A stretch of DNA of 61,637 bases, the filler included, from Candidatus Woesearchaeota archaeon (GTDB taxonomy: Archaea; Nanobdellota; Nanobdellia; SCGC-AAA011-G17; CAYFGV01): the NCBI GenBank assembly GCA_964342845.1. It is 5 parts of 5 records of this genome, joined end to end, with 100 filler letters (N's around TTAATTAATTAA, not from the genome) between each part and the next. Parts side by side here need not be neighbours in the genome. Positions count along the whole stretch, not along the records: positions 14,157 to 27,614 come from CAYFGV010000017.1; 4 more parts are not named here. The stretch is one strand, 5' to 3'. Under the pieces are notes generated by a model that was not told where the DNA came from, searched no databases, and saw only the letters and a list, made by a program, of their open reading frames with translations. This document shows, piece by piece, positions 7,275 to 51,748 of the stretch. The translations under genes were made by a program, and so were the position numbers. The stretch's first letter is position 1; each line of letters starts with the position of its first letter.

Positions 7275-9128
7275 ATGATTAATAAAATTTTAGAATTAGT
7301 AAAAGAATACAACCCAAAAGCAGATCTAGAGTTAATAAAAAGAGCATATCATTTTGCAGATAATGCTCACAAAAATCAAAAAAGACTTTCTGGAGAACAA
7401 TACATAATCCACCCATTAAAAGTTACTCTAACAGTAGCAAACCTAAAAGGTGACACTGCAAGTATCTGTGCCTCCTTACTTCATGATACATTAGAGGACT
7501 GCAACATAAAACCAAAAGAATTAGAAAAAGAATTTAATAAAGAAATATTATTACTAGTAGAAGGCCTAACCAAAATTAGAAACATACCTATAGAAATTAA
7601 AACTGCATCCTACATAAGAAAAGTACTTCTAGCAACAACAAAAGATATCAGAATTATAATAATAAAATTAGCAGATAAACTAGACAACATGAGAACTCTG
7701 AAATATCATAAACCAGAAAAAAGAAAAAAAATAGCAGAAGAAACTTTAAACATATACGCACCAGTTGCACAAAAACTTGGCATGTATGAACTAAAAGGGG
7801 AATTAGAAGATTTATCTCTAAAACATTTAAAACCAGAAATATATCAACACTTAAAACAAAAAGTAAACCAAACAAGAGAAGAAAGAGAAGAAAGAATAAA
7901 AACTACAATCAAAGAAATAAAAGAACTTCTAAAAGAAATAAATGTAAACATAAAAGGAAGAGCAAAATATTTCTATTCAATTTACAAAAGCATGAAAAAG
8001 AAACACAAAGAATTTAGCGAAATATACGACTTAACAGCATTAAGAATAATAACAAATACAACACCAGACTGTTATCTTGTTTTAGGAAAACTTCACGAAA
8101 AATACAAACCCTTATCAAATAAGTTTAAAGACTATATAGCTGTTCCTAAAAAAAATGGTTATCAGTCTCTACATACAACAGTTATAACAAAAAAAGGTAG
8201 CATTTTAGAAATACAAATAAGAACAAAACAAATGCACACCCAAGCAGAAGAAGGTGTAGCTTCACACTGGATTTACAAAGGAACAGAAAGAGATAAACAA
8301 TTTGATCAGAGAATAGCCTGGTTAAAAGAACTTTTAGAATGGAAAACATCTGAAAAAGCTTTTGTCGAAAACTTAAAATTTGATTTATTTGAAAAAGAAA
8401 TTATTGTATTCACACCAAAAGGAGATCCTATTATTTTGCCAGAAAACTCAACTCCTATTGATTTTGCGTATGAAGTACATTCTAATATAGGTAACAACTG
8501 TTCAAAGGCAGAAGTCAATAGTAAAATAGTTCCATTAGATTATATCCTAAAAAGCGGAGAAGTGGTTAATATTATGACAAAAAAAGATGCAAGACCCTCA
8601 AGACAATGGTTAAAATTTGTAAAAACAAGCAAAGCAAGAACAAAAATATCACAAGCCCTAAATATAAAATCTATTGATTTCACAAAACAAGAATCTAAAA
8701 AAGAAAACATAATTAAAGAAATAATTTGTGATTCAAAAAAACAATTAAAACTATCTAAATGTTGTAGTCCTAAATCCAATGATTTAATTAAAGGCTTTCT
8801 AACAAAAGATGGAAAGATTACAATCCATAAAGCAGATTGTATTAACTGTAAAACTCTAAAAAAAGAAATAAAAGTTAGTTGGGAAGAAAAAAAAGAACCA
8901 ATAAAAATAAGAATCTTAGTTGAAAATAGAACAGGTATGTTAGCAGACTTATTAAGTATAATAACGTCTAAAGAAATAAATATCCAAGCTATAAACTCTA
9001 GAAACAGAAAAGATAAAGTAATAATAACAATGTCATTTGAAAAAAAAGATGAAAATATAGTAGACCAATTAATAAACAACTTCAAACTTATTCAAGGAGT
9101 TTTAGAAATAGAGAAGGTTAAAGAATGA
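7275..9128 (+). CDS. rel: Long RelA/SpoT homolog ((p)ppGpp synthetase/hydrolase; HD, SYNTH, TGS, ZFD and ACT domains)
   Basis: LLHDTLED, KLADKLDNMRTL, GRAKYFYSI, KFKDYIAVPKKNGYQSLHT, EIQIRT, TGS (VFTPKGD...DFAYEVH), SKCCSP...IHKADC, ACT (NRTGMLADL). Confidence 0.95.
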   Translation: MINKILELVKEYNPKADLELIKRAYHFADNAHKNQKRLSGEQYIIHPLKVTLTVANLKGDTASICASLLHDTLEDCNIKPKELEKEFNKEILLLVEGLTKIRNIPIEIKTASYIRKVLLATTKDIRIIIIKLADKLDNMRTLKYHKPEKRKKIAEETLNIYAPVAQKLGMYELKGELEDLSLKHLKPEIYQHLKQKVNQTREEREERIKTTIKEIKELLKEINVNIKGRAKYFYSIYKSMKKKHKEFSEIYDLTALRIITNTTPDCYLVLGKLHEKYKPLSNKFKDYIAVPKKNGYQSLHTTVITKKGSILEIQIRTKQMHTQAEEGVASHWIYKGTERDKQFDQRIAWLKELLEWKTSEKAFVENLKFDLFEKEIIVFTPKGDPIILPENSTPIDFAYEVHSNIGNNCSKAEVNSKIVPLDYILKSGEVVNIMTKKDARPSRQWLKFVKTSKARTKISQALNIKSIDFTKQESKKENIIKEIICDSKKQLKLSKCCSPKSNDLIKGFLTKDGKITIHKADCINCKTLKKEIKVSWEEKKEPIKIRILVENRTGMLADLLSIITSKEINIQAINSRNRKDKVIITMSFEKKDENIVDQLINNFKLIQGVLEIEKVKE

Positions 9129-9922
9129 TAATCAAAGAAATAACCTCAAAATCCTGCTTAACTAAAAGTAAGTTAACAGATTATGTAATAAACCCATACA
9201 CAGGTTGCCAACACGGATGTAAATACTGTTACGCAACATTCATAAAAAGATTTCAAAACATAAAAGAACCATGGGGAGAATTTATTCATATTAAGAAAAA
9301 CTGCATAGAACTTCTAGAAAAAGAACTTAAAAAAAATAAGCCAGGACATATATGGCTTAGCTCAGTAACAGACGCTTACCAACCCATAGAAAATAGAACC
9401 AAACTAACAAGAGAGATACTAAAAACAATCCTACCTCACAAAAATAAATTTACAGTAGAAATTCTAACAAAATCTTCTTTAGTAAAAAGAGACTTTGGCA
9501 TAATAAAAAAACTAAATTCAGAAATAGGCTTATCAATAAATACTTTAGACAAAAATGTCACAAAGATAATTGAACCTTTAGCATCTAAACCTCTAGAAAG
9601 AATAAAAACCTTAAAACAAGCTGAAAAAGAAAACATAAAAGTTTATGGATTCATCTCTCCTTTGCTTCCAGGAATAACAAACCTAGAAGAATTATTCAAA
9701 GAATTAAACTTTTGTAACCACGTCTACATTGAACTATTAAACACCAGAAAACCCATATTAAATAGACTAATGCCAGTAATAAAAAAACATTTCCCAGAAA
9801 AAATAAAAGATTTTGAATTTGCAATTAACAACCCAGAACAACACTTCAAAGAAATAGAAAAACAAGCAAAAGTTCTTAGTAAAAAATACAACCTAAAAAT
9901 AAAATTAATTATCAAGCACTAA
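9125..9922 (+). CDS. Radical SAM protein (SplB/Rv2578c-like family)
   Basis: INPYTGCQHGCKYCYA CxxxCxxC motif, SSVTDAYQPIE. Confidence 0.85.
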   Translation: MIIKEITSKSCLTKSKLTDYVINPYTGCQHGCKYCYATFIKRFQNIKEPWGEFIHIKKNCIELLEKELKKNKPGHIWLSSVTDAYQPIENRTKLTREILKTILPHKNKFTVEILTKSSLVKRDFGIIKKLNSEIGLSINTLDKNVTKIIEPLASKPLERIKTLKQAEKENIKVYGFISPLLPGITNLEELFKELNFCNHVYIELLNTRKPILNRLMPVIKKHFPEKIKDFEFAINNPEQHFKEIEKQAKVLSKKYNLKIKLIIKH

Positions 9923-9923
9923 A

Positions 9924-10397
9924 ATGAATTATTACGATAAAATCTCAAAAGGCTACAACGAACTCTACAAAGAAGAACAACTAGAAAAAATAAAAAAACT
10001 AATTAAAATCATAGACAAAACTAAAAAAACTTTAGATGTCGGATGTGGAACAGCTTTTTATCATACCTTCTTCAAAAACTATACAGGAATAGACAACTCA
10101 AAAGAAATGTTAAAACAATCAAAAGCAAATATAAAATATTCACAAGCAGAAAACATCCCTTTCAAAGACAACTCTTTTGAACAAGTAATCTCTATTTCAG
10201 CTTTTCACAATTTCAAAGACCACAAAAAAGCTCTAAAAGAAATAGAAAGAATCTCAAAAAACACAATAGCAATAACAATAATAAAAAGAACACCAAAACT
10301 CAAATACTACAAAAACCTCTTAAAAGATTTCAAACAAATAGATTTAGGAAAAGATATACTATTTCTCAAAAAAACAAAAACTATAAAAACACAATAA
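9924..10397 (+). CDS. Class I SAM-dependent methyltransferase
   Basis: LDVGCGT motif I, GIDNSKEML, AENIPFKDNSF. Confidence 0.85.
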   Translation: MNYYDKISKGYNELYKEEQLEKIKKLIKIIDKTKKTLDVGCGTAFYHTFFKNYTGIDNSKEMLKQSKANIKYSQAENIPFKDNSFEQVISISAFHNFKDHKKALKEIERISKNTIAITIIKRTPKLKYYKNLLKDFKQIDLGKDILFLKKTKTIKTQ

Positions 10398-10413
10398 ACC
10401 TAAATAAATTAAA

Positions 10414-10686
10414 ATGACAGAAAGAACAGAAGCCTTAATGAGGATTCTAGTGGCAATTGTTTCTGGAATAATCCTAAGTATCTGGAAGGTTTTAATACAA
10501 ATTCTTGCAGTAATCCATTGGGTTATTACAATAGTTATAGGAAAAAGAAACAAAGACTTAGCAGATTTCAGCGAAATTTGGAACACTCAAGTTTACATCT
10601 TTTTAAGATATATAACATTTGTTTCAAATAAAAGACCATTTCCTTTCAAACCACTAGAAAAGAATATATCAAAATTCAAAAAATAA
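10414..10686 (+). CDS. Membrane protein, DUF4389-like
   Basis: Two hydrophobic helices, C-terminal RYITFVSNKRPFPF. Confidence 0.7.
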   Translation: MTERTEALMRILVAIVSGIILSIWKVLIQILAVIHWVITIVIGKRNKDLADFSEIWNTQVYIFLRYITFVSNKRPFPFKPLEKNISKFKK

Positions 10687-11118: not shown

Positions 11119-12954
11119 CTAATCAAACATAGTAAACAAACTACCTTCATCTTTCTTCTCTTCTTCTTCAACATCAAAATTCAACTCTTCAACTTTATCT
11201 TCCTCTTCAGGAGGAAAAGATTTATCTTGATTCTCTTCTTCTATAGTAAAAGACTCTTTCTTTTCTTCAGGAGGAAAAGGTTTATCAAAATCATCTTTCA
11301 TAGGATTAACAAAACCTTCATCTCTTTTAGCCATTAAATTTACAAAAGCACTACCCTCATCTCTTGCAACAGGAGCTCTATCAGATTTCCTTTGTTCTTC
11401 TTTCTTCAAAAAACTTTTCATATAATCTCCTTTTCTATCATCCTTCTCTGCTTCTTCTTTCTCTCTTATGTCTTTTAGAATCCTTTCTTTAAAGTGACTA
11501 ACATCAGACTCAGAAGCCTTCCCAAACTTAAACTTAGGAGCTTTATCCTTCAACTTAACCAACCTAGTTCTCAGTTTCTGTCCTTTCTTCTTCTCATGAG
11601 CAAATACTCTCTTTTTACTATTAGTCAAATTAACTCTTAATTTATTTGAGTAAAATATCAAACCCAAGAAAACAATAACAAATAAAACAAAAGGTAAATT
11701 AGAAGTAGAACTTCCAGGACTAGCTACAACATTTCCAGTCAAACTAGTAACACCTTCTCCAACCTTAGTAATTAAACTCCTAGTATCAGTTAAATACACA
11801 TCACTAAATATTTCATCTAAAACAAAAATACTATAGACCCCTTCATCTAAACTATTCAACAAATCAATAGAAACACTCTCACCTGGATTCAATCCAGTCC
11901 TTTTAATAATTTCAAACTCTTTACCTTCATTATTCCGAGCAAGAATCTTAATATCCGAAGCATAATCTACATTTCCATTATTAGTTAAAACTAATTCATT
12001 TTCACTAAGCAAAACTTCCAGACTCACCACCTCACTAACAGTAAATCCACCAACATCATCTAAGTATGCACTAATAACATAAATTTCCCAGGTTCCAGGT
12101 TTCATAGAACTCGGAAGAATATAATTATATTCTTTACCAGAAACAAAATCATCACTAAAAAACTCATCACCAAAAGGATCATATAAAACAAAATCTAATT
12201 CAGAATCAATTAACTCTCCAGCTTGATCAATCAAATCAGCTTTAATCTCTAACTCATCTCCAGGAATTAAATCAGAAACAAAAACATCTAAAATCAAATC
12301 TTCCTCCTTAGGAATGACCTCAAAACTTAAAACTTCATCTTTATAATTTCCATTCTCATCTTTTACAGTGATATAAAGAGTATGCTCTCCAGACTCAATA
12401 TTATCCTTTAAAACTTCTTTAATACTAAAACTACCTCTTGAAAAAACATCTGTAAACTCTTCTTCGTCAAACTTAACAATTACTTCTCCTTTAATATTAT
12501 CTTCATTAACATCTTGAACTACACCTTCAACAACCAAAGAATCACCTGGATCCAATTCATTATCTTTTAAACTAATTTCAGTAACTAGATTAGTTAAGAT
12601 ATCTAAAGATCTTACATTATCATAAAGACTTTCATGCCCAAAACCGTCTTTAATCAAAACATTAACAACATAAGCACCTGAAGGAATACTATCTTCTGTT
12701 TCGTGCAATAGTATTTTACCTGCTATACTAAATTTACCCTCTTCAATAACAGAAGAAAATTCTCTAATAGTATCACCATTTTCTATATAAACAATAACAA
12801 AGCCCTCATCTAAAGTAGTATAACCTTCTGCTGTAAACTCATCACCAAGTTGGACTTCCAAAGGATCAAGAATAAAATTGTTTAAATCAATAGTTTGTGC
12901 ACTTGCTAAAGGAATTAATAACAAAACCAGTAATAATAACCCTCTTTTTTCCAT
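11119..12954 (-). CDS. Large acidic cell-surface protein (signal peptide, Ig-like beta domains, TM helix, charged cytoplasmic tail)
   Basis: N-terminal signal LLLLVLLLIPLASA, repeated PGD/GTW beta-sandwich patterns, TM helix near residue 425. Confidence 0.7.
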   Translation of the reverse strand: MEKRGLLLLVLLLIPLASAQTIDLNNFILDPLEVQLGDEFTAEGYTTLDEGFVIVYIENGDTIREFSSVIEEGKFSIAGKILLHETEDSIPSGAYVVNVLIKDGFGHESLYDNVRSLDILTNLVTEISLKDNELDPGDSLVVEGVVQDVNEDNIKGEVIVKFDEEEFTDVFSRGSFSIKEVLKDNIESGEHTLYITVKDENGNYKDEVLSFEVIPKEEDLILDVFVSDLIPGDELEIKADLIDQAGELIDSELDFVLYDPFGDEFFSDDFVSGKEYNYILPSSMKPGTWEIYVISAYLDDVGGFTVSEVVSLEVLLSENELVLTNNGNVDYASDIKILARNNEGKEFEIIKRTGLNPGESVSIDLLNSLDEGVYSIFVLDEIFSDVYLTDTRSLITKVGEGVTSLTGNVVASPGSSTSNLPFVLFVIVFLGLIFYSNKLRVNLTNSKKRVFAHEKKKGQKLRTRLVKLKDKAPKFKFGKASESDVSHFKERILKDIREKEEAEKDDRKGDYMKSFLKKEEQRKSDRAPVARDEGSAFVNLMAKRDEGFVNPMKDDFDKPFPPEEKKESFTIEEENQDKSFPPEEEDKVEELNFDVEEEEKKDEGSLFTMFD

Positions 12955-13069
12955 TATTAATTATTTTAAAGCATAAGTTATTTATAAATGTTTTTATACT
13001 AAAATTTAACAAGATTATATTTTACTACCTAATAGTAAAGCTTATAAAGGAAGATTACATAAAAAAACA

Positions 13070-13447
13070 ATGATAAATCAAGAAGAATTTAACGATATGG
13101 ACTTCATAGGTTTTACACTAAGAGAACTCTCTAAAAGAAGAAAAGAAATAATTAATAGGCTTCTACATGATGAAGAACAGAGCAAAAGTCTTGTTAACGG
13201 AGACGAAGCCATACTTACAGAATTAATAACTAATGTAAATTCAAGAGTAAATAGAGATGGTATGAATCATTTTTTCAGAAAGAGTTATCTTGTAAATGAA
13301 AAAGCTTGTAGCCTAGGAATAGAAAGCTCTAAAAAGACCCTTCACCAACTAAACGAAATGTACCAAAACAAACAATTCAGAGAAAATATTATGGGTATTT
13401 ATTGTTACTTAATAGATAGTTACTTAGCTTCTGTAAGAACCTTATGA
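13070..13447 (+). CDS. Hypothetical protein
   Basis: 125-aa ORF with an upstream TATA-like element (CTTATAAA near 13041). Confidence 0.6.
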   Translation: MINQEEFNDMDFIGFTLRELSKRRKEIINRLLHDEEQSKSLVNGDEAILTELITNVNSRVNRDGMNHFFRKSYLVNEKACSLGIESSKKTLHQLNEMYQNKQFRENIMGIYCYLIDSYLASVRTL

Positions 13448-14056
13448 GCCTCTTGTGTAAATTCAAAGGCATCTTCAACAAAATCAGGTCTACCAAATGC
13501 CCTATAGATAGGCATGTATATCGCCCTATTCCTATAATAATCAAGCATTAAATTATACTGTTCCAATACCGGTATTTCCTTTGCATTCCCTACAGATTTT
13601 TCAAGATCAACTAACAAAGGTGATATCTTAACCCTATTAAACGCATCAACTTCGTCTAAAGACATTTTACCAGAATATGCGCCTTCAGCAACTTTATCAA
13701 CCTTACTAATAAACTCATCTAACAAGTTTTTATCATAACCAAGACTTATCAACTCTGTTCTTGTTGGAAAATGCGCAAGATCATGAATATCTAAAGAAGA
13801 CACAGGTATATGTACATTTCCCCTTAAAACAGATTTAACAGTAGAGGGGTTAATATATTTTATAGAACCAAGAGCACCAGGAAGCAAAGCCAACCCAAAC
13901 ATCTTCCAACTAGTTTCTCCTTTAAGGAATTCAATAGAAGTTGCAGGAATATCAACTATGTCATAAAATCTCCAAGGTTCTGATTGTCCAAGATTATAAG
14001 ACCATTGCCTAGCTGCCTTAGAAGGATGACCTTGAAAAAACAAACTAATAGGTGAA
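13420..14056 (-). CDS. C-terminal part of the RHS-core protein whose N-terminus is at 51749-52354
   Basis: 14002-14056 is identical to 51749-51803 (55 bp); both translate as ...FFQGHPSKAARQW...; joined ORF is 1188 nt, 395 aa. Confidence 0.85.
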
Positions 14057-14156
14057 NNNNNNNNNNNNNNNNNNNNNNNNNNNNNNNNNNNNNNNNNNNN
14101 TTAATTAATTAANNNNNNNNNNNNNNNNNNNNNNNNNNNNNNNNNNNNNNNNNNNN
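14057..14156. other. Artificial contig linker
   Basis: N-run/TTAATTAATTAA/N-run, 100 nt, identical at four positions. Confidence 0.98.
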
Positions 14157-14296
14157 AACTCAACTTTCCTAGGATTCTTAGAAACAAACTCTGAAAACTT
14201 TCGAAGATACAACAGGTACATGTCAACAGTGTGGGGACTCTTTCCTTCGACTTTCAAACGAGTTTCAACCCTTTCCAATGCCTGGTCCCATCTCAT
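14157..14296 (-). CDS. xerA: N-terminal part of the XerA-like tyrosine recombinase (continues at 40242-39561)
   Basis: SAM-like N-terminal domain (GKSPHTVDMYLLYLRKF); 14157-14211 is identical to 40243-40297. Confidence 0.85.
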
Positions 14297-14317
14297 ATAA
14301 TATGCATTATGTAATAT
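14290..14317. other. dif-like Xer recombination site (11-6-11)
   Basis: ATCTCATATAA-TATGCA-TTATGTAATAT has the ATAA-N6-TTAT core of dif sites; it overlaps the xerA ATG (14296-14294). Confidence 0.65.
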
Positions 14318-14318
14318 C

Positions 14319-14326
14319 TTTATAAA
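14319..14326 (-). promoter_or_regulatory. TATA box of xerA (probably leaderless transcript)
   Basis: TTTATAAA about 23 nt upstream of the ATG. Confidence 0.55.
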
Positions 14327-14498
14327 TCTTATGAATTATGGCTTAATTCGCTAGAATTAGGAAATTAGGGTTTTTATATAGGATTTAGGTGAAAAAGGTT
14401 GGGATCTAGAGGGAAATGTAGGGTTTTGTGAATGGGTAGAAAAGTTTATATATTGGTTGTTATTATATAATAGTGAAGAAAGTAAGGAGGAAAGAAAG

Positions 14499-14744
14499 AT
14501 GTCAAAGATATACGACTGTAGAGCATTTTGTACGAATATGTATAAAAGTAGCATTAAAAAACAAATGCCAGAAAGCGGTTATACTAACGATGCAAATGGC
14601 TATTTTTGCGGTTTAACTAATAATAGGTGTGTTGGTACTAAAGAAGGATTGACCATATTTTCGGACGACAGGTTAAATGTGGAAATTGTTGAAAGATGCC
14701 CGAGTAGAAAAACGATTGATAGTTTGATGGAATCTAGAAAATAA
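14499..14744 (+). CDS. Small Cys-containing hypothetical protein
   Basis: AAGGAGG RBS before ATG 14499; five cysteines. Confidence 0.6.
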   Translation: MSKIYDCRAFCTNMYKSSIKKQMPESGYTNDANGYFCGLTNNRCVGTKEGLTIFSDDRLNVEIVERCPSRKTIDSLMESRK

Positions 14745-14802
14745 TTTTTTTATCAAAGCTTAAAGGTTTTAATCTTTTTTTGTTTATTATGTGTTAGTAG
14801 TT

Positions 14803-14825
14803 AAAATAGAAAGGTTTATAAAGGG
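14803..14825 (+). promoter_or_regulatory. BRE/TATA promoter; same 23-mer at 30235 and a near copy at 32714
   Basis: AAAATAGAAAGGTTTATAAAGGG. Confidence 0.6.
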
Positions 14826-14851
14826 CGGATTAATAGGAATTGGAAGTTAAA

Positions 14852-15274
14852 ATGGTAACAATTTTTGAAAGAAAAAGAGATATGGAAATGTTAGGTAAGA
14901 GGCGTAGAAAGTTTAAAAGTAAGAATATGATTTCTGGACTTAGAACTGCTTTAAAAGTAGGAATACCTACTCTTTGTCTTTGTGGATTAGTATGGGCAGC
15001 TAAGCCTAGTAGGGAATTTATTAGTGAAGCTGTGGCAGATACGACTAATATGTTTGATTTGTATTATCTTAGGGATCGTGTTGAATATACTGTAAAAAAA
15101 GGAGATACTTTATTTAATATTTGGAAAACAGACTATAGTGGTGATGAATGGGATAATTTTAAGGGTTCTGTTGAACGTTTTAATTACTTAAATCCTGAAT
15201 ATAGGGGGGAATTTAATCCAGATAATATAGAATATGGGAAGAGTTTAAGGTTGCCTATGTCTAAAACGTATTAG
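14852..15274 (+). CDS. Membrane-anchored LysM-domain protein
   Basis: Hydrophobic segment, then YTVKKGDTLFNIW...NPDNIEYGKSLRLP. Confidence 0.75.
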   Translation: MVTIFERKRDMEMLGKRRRKFKSKNMISGLRTALKVGIPTLCLCGLVWAAKPSREFISEAVADTTNMFDLYYLRDRVEYTVKKGDTLFNIWKTDYSGDEWDNFKGSVERFNYLNPEYRGEFNPDNIEYGKSLRLPMSKTY

Positions 15275-15314
15275 ATTTAATTTTTTAGAATTGATTAAAA
15301 GTTATTAGCAGAAT

Positions 15315-15878
15315 TTAGAGTTTAATATGATACCATGTGACACCTGTTTTGCTATATGAATCTTCTATATTTAGTTTGGTTTTTTCTTTTATTTCATTCA
15401 TATGTTGAATTATTTCTTTTTCAGGTAATCTAAAATACAAAGCTAATAAGTTAGAATCAGCCACTAATGGCTGTTTTTTTGTGAAAATGTAGTAAATGAT
15501 TGATCTTTGGATTCTAGGGAGGTGTGTAAAATCACCATAATTAGGGATTCTCTTATCTTTTATTTGCACATATTTTATATTATTCTTTTTACAGAGCTTT
15601 TCTACATCCTTTTTTGTATCTAAACAGACTAGAAACAGTCTCATTTTTGCTTCTGGTAAAATAAGTTGTATATTTTCTTTATAAGATAATACTTGTTTAA
15701 TGGACGGTTGATCTGCTACTATTTTTATTTCTATTGCTGTAAGTTTTCCGAATTTGTCTTTACATAATAAATCAATCCTTCTTCCTATTGGAAACTGTCT
15801 TTTTATTAGAGATAGACCTGATTCTATTAAGTCTAGGTTTTCAGTTAAAAAATCTTCCAAAAGTTGTTCAGAGATCAT
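15315..15878 (-). CDS. PD-(D/E)XK endonuclease (NucS/EndoMS C-terminal-like) with a probable C-terminal HTH
   Basis: SEQLLEDFL...RQFPI-GRRIDLLCKD...AIEIK...QVLSY. Confidence 0.75.
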   Translation of the reverse strand: MISEQLLEDFLTENLDLIESGLSLIKRQFPIGRRIDLLCKDKFGKLTAIEIKIVADQPSIKQVLSYKENIQLILPEAKMRLFLVCLDTKKDVEKLCKKNNIKYVQIKDKRIPNYGDFTHLPRIQRSIIYYIFTKKQPLVADSNLLALYFRLPEKEIIQHMNEIKEKTKLNIEDSYSKTGVTWYHIKL

Positions 15879-15886
15879 TTTAATGT

Positions 15887-16576
15887 TTAATTTTTAACTT
15901 TCTTTCGTTTTCTTCCAGATATAAATTTAACTTGCCCTTCTCTTAGAAATATAATAAATTTCTCTAATTCTTTTCCTTTTGGCATATGTTTAAGTGCCTT
16001 TTTTGTTAGAGAAATACAAGTTTGACGGCCTCTTCTCTTTTTCATAAGAAAGCCCAAATCCATTAAATTGTCCGTATAACTTGAAATTAACGACCTTACT
16101 TCAGAATAATCTCTATTTGGATTAACTTCATTTGCTAGTCCTTTTAAAGTAATCCATTGGCGAGACCCTTCTTTTGATAGTTTAGTAGTACATATTAATA
16201 AAATTTGTTGTAAAGGCGTTAAATGACTCCATACAGGGTCAGCACCTTTTGCGATTTCTTCTTCTAAAGGGTCATCGTATATTTCTTCTTCTGTTTCTTC
16301 TTGTTCTGATTCTATTTCTTTTATCTTTATTTTTTTAGGCTTTATCTTTTCAGGTTCCTCATTATCTTTGAATCTTAGGATATTTTCGATCATACCCTCT
16401 ATCTTATCCATTCGTCTATGGGCTTGTTTTAATTCTGTTGAAAAATCTTCTTTTGAATTAACAATTTTTGCGTATATGTCTGAGATATCTTGCTTAATAT
16501 TACCAAAAGAATTAGATAGAGAAAGATGCAAGTGATTCCATTTGTGATCATCCTTTTTTTTGAATATACCAAACAT
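15887..16576 (-). CDS. Coiled-coil/linker/winged-helix DNA-binding protein (second of pair)
   Basis: N-terminal amphipathic helix, acidic linker, C-terminal LTPLQQILL...ITLKGLANEV...ISSYTDNLMDLGFLMKKRRGRQTCISLT. Confidence 0.7.
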   Translation of the reverse strand: MFGIFKKKDDHKWNHLHLSLSNSFGNIKQDISDIYAKIVNSKEDFSTELKQAHRRMDKIEGMIENILRFKDNEEPEKIKPKKIKIKEIESEQEETEEEIYDDPLEEEIAKGADPVWSHLTPLQQILLICTTKLSKEGSRQWITLKGLANEVNPNRDYSEVRSLISSYTDNLMDLGFLMKKRRGRQTCISLTKKALKHMPKGKELEKFIIFLREGQVKFISGRKRKKVKN

Positions 16577-16614
16577 AGTTTATTTTTAGATTTGCTTGTT
16601 TATATAATTTTTGG

Positions 16615-16803
16615 ATGTTAAGTTGACGTAAAGTTAAACGTAAATAGATATTCCATAGGCGCATGTGAACGTATAGGTTATGTAAAGTTTGCGCATAGTT
16701 TACTAATTGTTAACAATTATATTGGATGAAATAAGGGGTTTTAGACTATTTTAAGGCTGTTTAGATGGTTCACTGGACAATATGAATGTTAAGTGAACGA
16801 TTA
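16615..16803 (+). repeat. Degenerate direct-repeat array (consensus about GTKWACGYAWA), partly 11-bp phased, with a perfect 16-bp palindrome
   Basis: Units at 16622, 16634, 16665, 16676, 16687, 16698, 16709 and 16793; TAATTGTTAACAATTA at 16704-16719. Confidence 0.65.
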
Positions 16804-16857
16804 TTTTGAAGTTTTAAATAAAGTTATAATATGAGAGTTAATTTTGTCTAATTCTAT

Positions 16858-17651
16858 TGTCGAAGTGTCGAAAGATTGTCGAAAAGATAGCTAAATCTAT
16901 TGAATGTTAGCTGAAGTGAGAGTAAATTATAGATCAAAAAGTGTGGATTGTTTTGTAGGAGTAGGGTATCTTATGCGTAAAAGCTTGTCCATGAGCTCTA
17001 AATCCCTTAATTCTGGCTTAATAGTGAGATAAACTCGCCTATTTGTCGAGATTTCCTTGGAAATGGGGAGGTTTTTGAGTAAAATCTCTGAAATATGGTC
17101 TCTGATGGAGCTTTGTGAGAGTTTGAGTTTAGCTGCTATGTCGGAATATGTGATTGGACGCTGTAATTCTTCCTCTAGATGGTAAATTGCCATAAAAACC
17201 ATGAATTCTTTGTCTGTAAGGCTTCTAAATCGGTTGATAAAGTCTGTTTTTAGGTCTTCGAGTGAGTGTATTTGATTGTCTGGTTGTCGAAAGGTTGTCG
17301 ATTGTCTGTCGAGTGTCTGTCGAAAGACCCCTTTATTTCCAGTGGAAAATATTTTTTTATTGTTGGAATTCTTAGTAATTTGAGGTTTTTGAGGCTCAGA
17401 AACTGGTTTTTCTATGTCGGAAGGCTTCTCAAGTGTCGAAAGAAGCTTGTCGATTTTAGCTTTTAAAGCTTGAATTTCAGCATTTTGGACCTTAATTTGG
17501 GTTTCTAAGCTATCTATATGGGCTCTAGACCTAGAAAAAGAGAGTTTAACGTTTTCTTTAAAGATATCTTCTGTCATGGTTGTCGGAAGAGGGATAGAAA
17601 TATAAAGATTTATGTTGTCGGGTTGTCGGAAGAGTTAGAAACTGTTGTCGA
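16858..17651 (+). repeat. Iteron-like array: 16 co-oriented TGTCGR hexamers
   Basis: Starts at 16858, 16866, 16877, 17044, 17139, 17285, 17296, 17307, 17318, 17415, 17434, 17448, 17581, 17616, 17624 and 17646; none seen on the opposite strand in this span. Confidence 0.9.
16927..17577 (-). CDS. Coiled-coil/linker/winged-helix DNA-binding protein (first of pair; candidate initiator)
   Basis: N-terminal coiled coil, low-complexity linker encoded by the repeats, C-terminal LTDKEFMVFMAIY...ITYSDIAAKLKLSQSSIRDHISEI wHTH. Confidence 0.75.
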   Translation of the reverse strand: MTEDIFKENVKLSFSRSRAHIDSLETQIKVQNAEIQALKAKIDKLLSTLEKPSDIEKPVSEPQKPQITKNSNNKKIFSTGNKGVFRQTLDRQSTTFRQPDNQIHSLEDLKTDFINRFRSLTDKEFMVFMAIYHLEEELQRPITYSDIAAKLKLSQSSIRDHISEILLKNLPISKEISTNRRVYLTIKPELRDLELMDKLLRIRYPTPTKQSTLFDL

Positions 17652-17675
17652 AGGTGAGAATAGGTTAGTTAGGCA

Positions 17676-18197
17676 CTAAGAATTATTAAGAACATTCTTA
17701 GGAATTAAGCCTGGATATAGTTTATTAAACAGCAATAAGAAGGTTTGACTACCTATATCTAAACCTGCTGAAACTAATGCATCTGCCAGGTGTTTTGAGA
17801 CTTCTTTTCTGCTACCTTGGATTTGTTTGTAGTTAAGGATTTGATTTAATGTGTGGTAGTTAAGGAAGCCTTGATTTAGTTCAATAGATACTTGATTTTG
17901 CTTTGAATTTAAGACTGCTAAGGTATTTAGGTCTACTGAGAGATCTTGACTTTTAAAGGTGTTTTTTGTTTGTTTAAAGCCCAGGTTTTTTAGTTCTAAA
18001 GTTATTAAGGTTTTAATTATGTTTTTGTTTGTTTTAGAATTATTTTTGAATGTTTGGTTGTCTAATTTAGGGAGTTTGTATACTCTTCCTAAGTATTTTT
18101 TTGTTTTTTGTTTGATCTTTTTATTTCTTTTATTTAGTTTGTTTTCTACTAAGTAGGCGTATTCATTGTTTTTGATTTTTTTAGTTCTAATAAACAT
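17676..18197 (-). CDS. Basic hypothetical protein
   Basis: MFIRTKKIKNNEYAYLVEN...YLGRV beta-hairpin-like N-terminus; no DDE domain. Confidence 0.7.
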   Translation of the reverse strand: MFIRTKKIKNNEYAYLVENKLNKRNKKIKQKTKKYLGRVYKLPKLDNQTFKNNSKTNKNIIKTLITLELKNLGFKQTKNTFKSQDLSVDLNTLAVLNSKQNQVSIELNQGFLNYHTLNQILNYKQIQGSRKEVSKHLADALVSAGLDIGSQTFLLLFNKLYPGLIPKNVLNNS

Positions 18198-18489: not shown

Positions 18490-18897
18490 TTATTTTTTTG
18501 GTTGTAATTTAGGTAGACTGATATGCGGAGGTAGATTTACCTCTTGCGACAATGTTAATGCTTTAATGTTACACTTTGCTAATATTGTGTTGAAAATTAA
18601 AGGCATTATTTCGTTTGGTAGTTTTTGGTCTTTTTTCCATTCTTTTAGGATGTTATCTTTTTCTTTTTTTTCTGCTAAATAAAGAATATGTCCTTTTATT
18701 GAGATATTTCCTAATTTAGGTTCGTAGTCTATTTTGTATTTGAAATTTAATTTTAGAACGTCCTGTTCAGAACCAAAGGTTATTTTTTCTGTTTCTATGT
18801 CTGTTATTCCTAAGTCGTTTTTAATTTGTATTTTTCCTTTTATTGCGCTTGTTTTTTCAACATTTATTTTATCTAGATTAAATCCTATTATTGGCAT
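18490..18897 (-). CDS. Hypothetical protein
   Basis: 135-aa ORF co-oriented with argS; GGTGA RBS. Confidence 0.75.
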   Translation of the reverse strand: MPIIGFNLDKINVEKTSAIKGKIQIKNDLGITDIETEKITFGSEQDVLKLNFKYKIDYEPKLGNISIKGHILYLAEKKEKDNILKEWKKDQKLPNEIMPLIFNTILAKCNIKALTLSQEVNLPPHISLPKLQPKK

Positions 18898-27614: not shown

Positions 27615-27714
27615 NNNNNNNNNNNNNNNNNNNNNNNNNNNNNNNNNNNNNNNNNNNNTTAATTAATTAANNNNNNNNNNNNNNNNNNNNNNNNNNNNNN
27701 NNNNNNNNNNNNNN
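27615..27714. other. Artificial contig linker
   Basis: N-run/TTAATTAATTAA/N-run. Confidence 0.98.
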
Positions 27715-39560: not shown

Positions 39561-40297
39561 CTAAATCTCAACTGTTATATTTTTTAATTCTTTTGTACTA
39601 ACCTTGGTGTAAATTTCGGTCGTACTGATCGAGCTGTGTCCGAGTAGAGCCTGGATATATCGTATATCTACGCCTGATTCAAGCAAATGGGTAGCATATG
39701 AGTGTCTTAAAGTATGGCAAGAAACATCTTTAATGATCCTTGCTTTTTCTGTAGCTTGTTTAAACAAAAAATGAACATGTCTTGTACACAAAGGTTTCCC
39801 ATTAGAAGCAACAAACAGATAATCCTTAATCCTAGAATCTAGTATAAAATCTTTTAATTCCTCTAAAAACCTAGGAGATAAGTAAACAATCCTATCCTTC
39901 CGACCTTTTCCAGCTTTAATATGAAAGGCATTATTGTCAAAATCTAAGTCTTTTAAACGAGCATTTACAGCTTCACTTAACCTTAAGCCACCAGAATATA
40001 TGAATTTGAAGATCATTTTATCTCTTAAAGAACAAACAGAGAAAATATCGTTAATTTCTTTTTTACTTAGAACAACAGGTATTTTTTTGTCTATTTTTAT
40101 AACTAATTTAGTTTTTTCAGAAGTATCAACTATTGGTTTATCTAAGATTTTATTATACAGGTATTTTATTGCTGCTTTTGTCAAAGTTTTTGTTGAGTTT
40201 GAAACATTAGTTAAAGAAGCAAAATATTTTTCAACATCGTAGAACTCAACTTTCCTAGGATTCTTAGAAACAAACTCTGAAAACTTTCGAAGATACA
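39561..40297 (-). CDS. xerA: Tyrosine recombinase XerA-like, catalytic part (N-terminus at 14157-14296; full length 273 aa)
   Basis: GLRLSE (R), GKGRKDR (K), HTLRHSYATH (HxxR), LLGH, TTEIY (Y): all catalytic residues present. Confidence 0.93.
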
Positions 40298-40397
40298 NNN
40301 NNNNNNNNNNNNNNNNNNNNNNNNNNNNNNNNNNNNNNNNNTTAATTAATTAANNNNNNNNNNNNNNNNNNNNNNNNNNNNNNNNNNNNNNNNNNNN
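40298..40397. other. Artificial contig linker
   Basis: N-run/TTAATTAATTAA/N-run. Confidence 0.98.
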
Positions 40398-51648: not shown

Positions 51649-51748
51649 NNNNNNNNNNNNNNNNNNNNNNNNNNNNNNNNNNNNNNNNNNNNTTAATTAA
51701 TTAANNNNNNNNNNNNNNNNNNNNNNNNNNNNNNNNNNNNNNNNNNNN
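51649..51748. other. Artificial contig linker
   Basis: N-run/TTAATTAATTAA/N-run. Confidence 0.98.

Follow-up and report, generated by a model that had tools for sequence, protein, structure and literature searches.

What is a pair of repeat-associated DNA-binding genes doing beside the recombinase gene xerA, on an archaeal chromosome that also carries a conventional origin of replication? The question arises from a 61.6-kb stretch of DNA (the window, along which positions are counted) from a Candidatus Woesearchaeota archaeon, assembly GCA_964342845.1. The genome under study (G000) is a 573-kb metagenome-assembled genome of 28 contigs, 84.8% complete, and the window holds five of these contigs (C15, C17, C18, C19 and C21) with N spacers between them. 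The locus forms the start of contig C17 (14157-27614), where two genes, here called w1 and w2, encode proteins with a C-terminal winged helix-turn-helix (wHTH). The original prediction made it a candidate undescribed replicon-maintenance locus, which might be a chromosomal origin independent of Cdc6 or a segregation centre. Sequence comparison with related genomes identifies it as the study genome's copy of a chromosomal module of Woesearchaeota- and Pacearchaeota-type archaea (Nanobdellota), composed of p135, w1, w2, a variable segment, dif and xerA. A canonical origin recognition box (ORB) is embedded in the coding sequence of w1. The main features are the following.

16927-17577, minus strand: w1, with a long N-terminal helix, a disordered linker and a C-terminal wHTH; uncharacterised family
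17326-17349, minus strand: canonical ORB core with G-string, a putative Orc1/Cdc6 box, inside w1
17285-17323, plus strand: intragenic array of four TGTCGA, starting at 17285, 17296, 17307 and 17318, at exact 11-bp spacing
17581-17651, plus strand: promoter array of four TGTCGR that bracket the TATA-like box and start codon of w1
16858-16882, plus strand: three TGTCGA iterons shortly past the stop codon of w1
15887-16576, minus strand: w2, with a coiled coil, an acidic linker and a C-terminal wHTH; a predicted distant paralog of w1
18490-18897, minus strand: p135 (135 aa), for which no family was found; conserved upstream neighbour of w1

The core of this ORB, TCCAGTGGAAA, occurs once in the 573 kb, at 17338-17348 within w1, and is followed by a G-string; the core motif (TTCC...GAA) and the G-string are as described in PMC1904270. 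The original prediction had seen no ORB at the locus, and on this point it was mistaken. In translation the box encodes the w1 peptide S-T-G-N-K-G-V, an instance of a near-invariant family motif, S-x-G-N-x-G-V, and an ORB is present in w1 of 22 of the 25 genomes examined. Codon choice at the motif was counted in 18 genomes with S-x-G-N-x-G-V and compared with the genome-wide codon share in the study genome.

Serine TCC: 18 of 18 at the motif; 3.7% of serine codons in the study genome
Glycine GGG: 18 of 18 at the motif; 10.9% of glycine codons in the study genome
Valine GTC: 11 of 18 at the motif; 5.3% genome-wide share in the study genome

Two further codons of the motif, GGA and AAT, are each found in 17 of 18. 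In two relatives (G021 and G025, at L073:8280 and L077:8240) the ORB and G-string lie in another reading frame and the peptide is replaced, for example by P-Q-E-T-R-G-S, which argues that the DNA is conserved and not the protein. As judged from these comparisons, the ORB in w1 is kept by selection on DNA rather than on the peptide, and it offers a clear case of selection at the DNA level shaping what looks like a conserved protein motif. Within 18 regions of 12-34 kb, the pattern of ORB plus G-string is found almost only at the chromosomal origin (oriC) and in w1. More widely, a 21-nt ORB pattern occurs at 122 or more loci in GTDB genomes, all but one of them archaeal and from many phyla; of the 80 loci fetched, cdc6 is no more than 900 bp away in 22, and w1 is present in 11. 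Over 17054-17478 and 17275-17528, the window agrees without a difference with contigs assembled from other samples.

The module around the box is part of the core chromosome. Presence was scored in 61 relatives and, as a second sample, in 201 genomes of the phylum. Of the 61 relatives, 53 have w1, mostly as a single copy, and so do 37 of 39 high-quality genomes; in the second sample it is found in 150 of 201 genomes, with 37 of 37 from the same order and 112 of 163 from other orders, where the matches mostly cover the wHTH part only. w2 is present in 39 of 61 genomes. Among the 38 relatives with a match, 36 have it no more than 1.5 kb from w1. Gene order was followed in 20 regions fetched from 19 families, with genes labelled by BLAST only, and runs cdc6, oriC, a small gene, lonB, argS, p135, w1, w2, the variable segment and xerA. 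In 18 of these 20 loci p135 is the near upstream neighbour of w1, either adjacent to it or separated from it by one or two small genes, and it may belong to the module. The homolog search that the original prediction had called for, on copy number, synteny and local repeats, returned w1 in 53 of 61 genomes, a fixed order and lineage-specific arrays, and the predicted co-orientation of the genes, with argS and cbf5 nearby, was also confirmed. The module is undescribed in curated families and in the literature searched: NCBIfam and Pfam hold nothing above cut-off for w1, w2, p135 or the adjacent p173, searches on DPANN strand skew and replication direction and on Woesearchaeota origins returned no description of it, and no literature on DPANN archaea was found that names an 'origin recognition box'.

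Canonical archaeal origins consist of inverted ORBs around an AT-rich DNA unwinding element (DUE), next to orc1/cdc6. Such an origin exists in the study genome. Its orc1/cdc6 gene, followed by two genes for PolD, is on contig C13, and the 456-bp spacer upstream of cdc6 contains two direct ORB-like boxes and one inverted box around about 150 bp at 84-88% AT. The original prediction had missed this cdc6 gene. The w1 box has the same ORB sequence with G-string as canonical origins, but the locus differs from them in lacking an inverted partner, a strong DUE and an adjacent cdc6; its origin-like anatomy is limited to a single box and, across the gene, a tract of 84% AT.

16801-16857, no strand: AT-rich tract, 57 bp, 84% AT

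The tract, which had been predicted to lie between two repeat arrays, is real but weaker than oriC. It falls in the top 1.8% of 57-bp windows of a genome that is 69.5% AT, and is below the true oriC, where 84-88% AT spans about 150 bp. It is thus a modest feature, and nothing supports a role for it as an unwinding element.

In relatives the module and the origin are physically linked. w1 and the Cdc6_C domain occur together in 49 genomes, on one contig in 29 and on separate contigs in 20, including the study genome. All 29 same-contig cases, the largest contig being 737 kb long, have the two genes 4.5-23.5 kb apart. Together with the conventional origin on C13 and the ORB built into the locus itself, this removes the reading of the locus as a Cdc6-independent chromosomal origin.

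A described parallel to an ORB inside a gene is in the Thermococcales, where Cdc6 of Pyrococcus binds an intragenic ORB cluster in dp1 (PMC1904270). Like the w1 site, this cluster of ORBs and mini-ORBs places boxes inside a protein gene a few kb from oriC and is kept across an order, with no established function (PMC1904270). Unlike the dp1 cluster, w1 has a single full ORB, its host gene encodes a DNA-binding protein, and the box is abutted by phased repeats of w1's own that turn over between lineages.

These repeats are concentrated at the locus. TTGTCGR is found 13 times in the window, as compared with 3.4 +/- 1.9 expected, and 10 of the 13 matches fall within 16857-17651, all on the plus strand; of 94 copies of TGTCGR genome-wide, 16 lie in about 0.8-1 kb at the locus, on one strand. 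The four intragenic TGTCGA copies occupy all three reading frames of w1, so that they are a feature of the DNA and not a peptide repeat. Each lineage of relatives has a hexamer of its own at two corresponding sites, one in the w1 promoter, with 2-5 copies between -100 and -35, and the other just 3' of the ORB. A second array had been predicted with the same 11-bp phasing as the first.

16626-16800, plus strand: array 2, ACGT-type, directly upstream of the w2 TATA-like box

Of the two predicted arrays, the TGTCGR array is well supported, but array 2 is weak in the study genome, with two tandem units 11 bp apart and two dispersed copies. Of 13 loci in relatives, 7 have a lineage-specific array, of 4-8 copies, in the spacer between w1 and w2.

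That w1 would bind its own repeats is supported chiefly by covariation between its recognition helix and the hexamer. A helix of the SQSSIRDH type is paired with TCGACA in the study genome and in G031, G029 and G039, and a SEGCIRTY helix is paired with ATTCAT in G001, G008, G021, G025 and G010. Within a single family, G000 and G001 differ in helix as well as hexamer. Since the classes are common to distant families, yet the study genome differs from G001, its sole same-family relative, the pattern suggests that the module has been exchanged or that its specificity has switched repeatedly.

A different short sequence, CTCACTT (AAGTGAG), is present in many relatives in 3-9 copies, at irregular spacings of 60-120 bp, over the 3' half of w1 and the w1-w2 spacer (for example at L065:8958-10137, in the spacers of L066, L067 and L077, and at 16911-16917 of the window). 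Unlike the iterons it is common to several lineages, and G009 uses it, in about 20 copies, as its w1 iteron.

The proteins themselves give few clues. The w1 product is 216 aa, and an AlphaFold2 model places a helix at residues 2-49, disorder at 54-99 and the wHTH at 106-203; its family comprises 1009 representatives at E<=1e-3, labelled 'hypothetical' and mostly from Nanobdellota. The prediction that w1 and w2 share one architecture agrees with the model of w1 and with a comparison of the two family profiles (hhalign probability 96.6%, E 5e-10), and on this profile evidence w1 and w2 are distant paralogs; as single proteins from the study genome they give no significant BLASTP alignment (E 2.8). 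Sub-threshold winged-helix matches were obtained to DnaD_N (17.8 bits, cut-off 27), HTH_36 (<25) and RPA_C, and NCBIfam TIGR04548 scored 21.8 against a cut-off of 100. A profile search of the PDB returned no significant match, and membership of the Rep, O or DnaD families is thus not indicated. The suggested comparison with Rep, lambda O and DnaD found sub-threshold matches only, and Foldseek pointed to generic MarR/ArsR folds.

How might an ORB, a repeat-binding protein and a nearby origin work together? The reading favoured here, to which we give about even chances on the sequence evidence, is that the module is an origin-accessory complex in which Orc1/Cdc6 and w1 would bind next to one another, and which would also autoregulate w1. 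It starts from the observed conservation, synteny, constraint at the DNA level and covariation of helix and repeat, and from these we infer which proteins bind and what the complex does. w1 would be a coiled-coil dimer with a C-terminal winged helix that most likely binds its own lineage-specific hexamers, TGTCGR in the study genome. The four copies around the TATA-like box and start codon would mediate autorepression, and the four phased copies in linker-coding DNA, with the three past the stop codon, would provide further docking sites for w1. Orc1/Cdc6 and a helically phased w1 oligomer could then assemble side by side, in a complex that would tune expression of w1 and w2, and that may modulate the availability of Orc1, or the traffic of helicases or forks, at the junction of origin and dif. 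The module has three conserved parts, namely an initiator box in coding sequence, an adjacent binder that changes together with its repeats, and a place between the origin and the site of dimer resolution, and it gives a handle on how DPANN archaea start, direct and finish replication, processes that are little understood so far. A non-initiator DNA-binding protein at a defined motif beside ORBs is also known from oriC1 of Sulfolobus, where UBP recognizes ucm; in distinction from w1, UBP binds hundreds of sites and the ucm motif lies inside the origin (PMC12141716).

Several observations weigh against an origin-accessory complex. There is one ORB at the locus, with no inverted partner, and no recognisable ORB in w1 of G002, G035 and G009. 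In the study genome cdc6 and w1 are on different contigs, C13 and C17, with no 55-mer end overlap that links them, and a comparison of gene order with G001 and G002 does not place one relative to the other. The strand skew shows nothing specific to the w1 locus. Finally, Foldseek against the PDB matches the w1 wHTH to generic MarR/ArsR regulators only (E ~1e-3), and with such a fold a plain autoregulated pair of transcription factors would fit much of the anatomy.

A first alternative, possible but on balance unlikely, is that the ORB is secondary and that oriented w1/w2 arrays build a stiff block at the origin-dif junction, as a centromere-like, SMC-positioning or fork-trap complex that would mark segregation, stall Smc-ScpAB or stop a fork by dif. 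Its anatomy is that of the ParR/parC, omega and TubR/tubC centromeres, in which a small dimeric protein likewise binds phased direct repeats, autoregulates itself and changes its specificity rapidly. The position near origin and dif/XerA suits it, Smc is present, and the orientation of w1 is fixed, its sense strand being the C-rich one in all 15 short loci and in 18 of the 20 longer regions. Unlike these centromeres, the w1 locus has an embedded ORB and repeats inside coding sequence, and a search for a motor gene came up empty: no partner NTPase (ParA, ParM or TubZ) is among the domains of 10 neighbours in the study genome, and none was recognised in the conserved blocks of relatives, as labelled by BLAST only. 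A further point of support is that in Thermococcus kodakarensis the wHTH protein TrmBL2 makes a dif-flanking Smc boundary, with XerA dispensable (PMC11840125). Like w1 it is a wHTH protein on dif-adjacent DNA, but TrmBL2 is there a genome-wide nucleoid protein of another family, acting at a site in a 1.9-kb intergenic region with no origin nearby in that account (PMC11840125). The TrmB family is absent among Pfam matches of w1, w2 and 16 family members, which counts against this reading. As to the fork trap, a short-fork trap in its simple form would leave a reversed skew from oriC to w1, and it is rejected because this interval keeps the skew sign of the genome.

In the study genome xerA runs across a join between two contigs. 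The last 55 nt of C18 are exactly the first 55 nt of C17, from which it follows that the join rebuilt in the original prediction is correct, and the frame joined over this overlap is a 273-aa XerA, as had been predicted for the locus.

14157-14296, minus strand: N-terminal 46 codons of xerA, the SAM-like part (Pfam Phage_int_SAM_4, E 3.8e-5)
39561-40297, minus strand: catalytic part of xerA, at the end of contig C18 (Phage_integrase, E 6e-42)
14290-14317, no strand: candidate dif, by position only; an imperfect 11-6-11 palindrome that overlaps the start codon of xerA

XerA has the make-up of a tyrosine recombinase, a SAM-like domain at the N-terminus followed by a catalytic domain, and is the sole Phage_integrase match in the study genome. 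Of the 20 regions fetched from relatives, 14 include xerA. In four genomes examined separately its distance from w1 is 1.3 kb (G035), 8 kb (G223), 10 kb (G002) and 3 kb (G069, a member of another order). A dif site is defined as 28 bp, with 11-bp imperfect inverted repeats and a 6-bp spacer (PMC2958812). The dif-like site predicted for the study genome is indeed a near-palindrome over the xerA start, with 8 of 11 arm positions paired, but it has five mismatches to the consensus of relatives, a score reached at well over 100 other places in this genome, and by that measure it is indistinguishable from background. The prediction of Xer/dif in the neighbourhood fares better in relatives, many of which have strong, near-perfect 11-6-11 palindromes adjoining xerA or w2. 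In G002 the best dif-like site is 0.5 kb from w2 and is the only one with two or fewer mismatches in 737 kb, and dif-like sites of relatives lie 10-20 kb from oriC.

A second alternative is that w1 and w2 are an ordinary autoregulated pair of transcription factors, with operators that reach into coding sequence and an ORB that serves Orc1-dependent control of transcription only. The repeats do bracket TATA-like boxes and start codons of both w1 and w2, and the generic MarR/ArsR-like wHTH and weak matches to regulator HTH families are what such a pair would show. We regard it as distinctly unlikely, as it leaves four observations without explanation: the origin-proximal position in all 29 same-contig cases, an intragenic array that always abuts the ORB, an orientation that tracks skew, and the linkage to dif and xerA.

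Strand skew itself raises a broader possibility. At four-fold sites the study genome has a GC skew of 0.5-0.8 that is constant in nearly every contig or scaffold, whatever the strand of the genes, with the exceptions of C8 and S_E, which are mixed, and C13, where skew fades to zero. On both sides of the C18/C17 join the plus strand has G>C and T>A, in agreement with the same-sign G/T bias that the original prediction had seen by eye. In G002, a closed genome in a single contig of 737 kb, neutral-site skew has one sign throughout; it also has one sign across oriC on a 120-kb contig of G001 and within +/-40 kb of oriC in G020 and G032. It is mostly of one sign in G029 and G035, and ambiguous in G059. 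The closed genome G223 (C1 1-800000) has a weak skew with a turning point at oriC, and gene orientation in G002 diverges around oriC. No flip occurs at the w1 locus in G000, G001, G002, G020 or G032. The original prediction named as refuting it a conventional ORB/Cdc6 origin that fully explains skew and coverage; such an origin exists, but it does not fully explain the skew.

We know of no process other than effectively one-way replication that would produce a uniform, chromosome-wide strand bias. It is conceivable, though we think it distinctly unlikely, that many of these DPANN chromosomes replicate in effect one way, with the w1/w2 ORB-iteron module as a polar element between oriC and dif. 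Origin and terminus would then lie side by side, as in the adjacent-origin-and-dif option of the original prediction, which is in keeping with relatives' dif-like sites 10-20 kb from oriC and the lack of a flip in G001, G002, G020 and G032, and the module would set the direction or stop the returning fork. The uniform skew of G002, the absence of an oriC flip in G001, G020 and G032, the dif-like site near w2 in G002 and a w1 orientation that tracks skew all fit one-way replication; the weak oriC flip of G223, the divergent gene orientation of G002 and the lack of reversed skew between oriC and w1 do not. If true, this would be a plasmid-like design undescribed for a cellular chromosome, and the module and the odd strand asymmetry together make replication direction in these archaea directly testable.

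The origin of phage lambda lies in its gene O, and iteron plasmids have a box for the host initiator beside their iterons. The layout of the w1 locus is similar, with repeats about one helical turn apart in the linker-coding part of the gene for a binder, an adjacent host-initiator site and autoregulatory copies at the promoter. A third alternative would therefore make the locus a second, iteron-type origin, with w1 as a Rep- or lambda-O-like initiator acting on repeats in its own gene and Orc1 helping at the ORB. The ORB, the four repeats at exactly 11 bp with three and four flanking copies, and the sub-threshold winged-helix matches (DnaD_N, HTH_36 and RPA_C) are in its favour. We nonetheless consider it very unlikely, in view of the conventional cdc6-linked ORB/AT-rich origin, the single ORB without an inverted pair or strong DUE, the lack of a Rep family at cut-off and the lack of a skew flip in the five genomes named above. 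Unlike lambda and iteron plasmids, the w1 locus is chromosomal, with a core, single-copy and syntenic block that is neither extrachromosomal nor mobile; it matches neither Rep nor O, gives no evidence of firing, and, having an ORB built in, is not independent of Cdc6.

A fourth alternative, in which the locus is what is left of an integrated plasmid or virus that brought an integrase, a Rep and a nuclease of its own, could draw on the integrase, nuclease and HEPN/MNT-like pair nearby, on the variable w2-xerA segment and on the near absence of C18 from the equivalent place in G001, but it has next to no chance of being correct, as w1, w2, p135, argS and xerA each occur once and keep their synteny throughout the order, the recombinase is the only one in the genome and only the inserted segment looks accessory. 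On the same single-copy core synteny, a mobile element is rejected as an identity for w1 and w2.

Two further genes of the original prediction's neighbourhood lie outside this core or at its edge.

15315-15878, minus strand: PD-(D/E)XK nuclease, like the NucS C-terminal domain (Pfam NucS_C, E 1.2e-13)
17676-18197, minus strand: p173, lysine-rich, no family found; adjoins w1 in 3 of 20 relatives

The predicted PD-(D/E)XK nuclease is therefore present. Only its C-terminal domain is matched (residues 4-107), with 39.7 bits for NCBIfam NucS against a cut-off of 216 and no match to the NucS N-terminal DNA-binding domain. An assignment as NucS ortholog is rejected, as the C-terminal domain stands alone and the equivalog score is far below cut-off. 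A homolog is found in none of the 20 relatives' loci, and the nuclease sits in the variable segment, outside the conserved module. The description as a replicon-maintenance locus thus holds in that the module is chromosomal, repeat-associated, undescribed and not mobile, but the nuclease does not belong to it. The segment between w2 and xerA is 1-6 kb and differs among genomes. On the other side of xerA, the corresponding place in G001 holds no equivalent of most of C18, so that this part looks like an accessory insertion between xerA and C3-type genes. A gene pair that resembles an HTH-nucleotidyltransferase and a HEPN protein, as judged from translations only, adjoins xerA at 38418-39400 on C18.

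End overlaps of the C18/C17 type extend the assembly. The reverse complement of C3 joins C18 in the same way, giving a 72-kb scaffold around the locus. Further exact 55-mer end overlaps connect C15 with C21 and form a chain of C22, C23 and C15, with others too, so that larger scaffolds can be assembled. The spacers of the window, at 14057-14156, 27615-27714, 40298-40397 and 51649-51748, each read N-TTAATTAATTAA-N.

Three replication or housekeeping genes of the study genome (C13:1323-6737, 8130-10436 and 12085-17013, outside the window) are unusual in length or continuity. The cdc6 open reading frame encodes 768 aa, as compared with 401-412 aa in relatives, the large subunit of PolD is 1642 aa against 1164-1183 aa in relatives, and LonB is matched in separate pieces. 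From these sequences, cdc6, LonB and the PolD large subunit look like carriers of candidate intein-type insertions.

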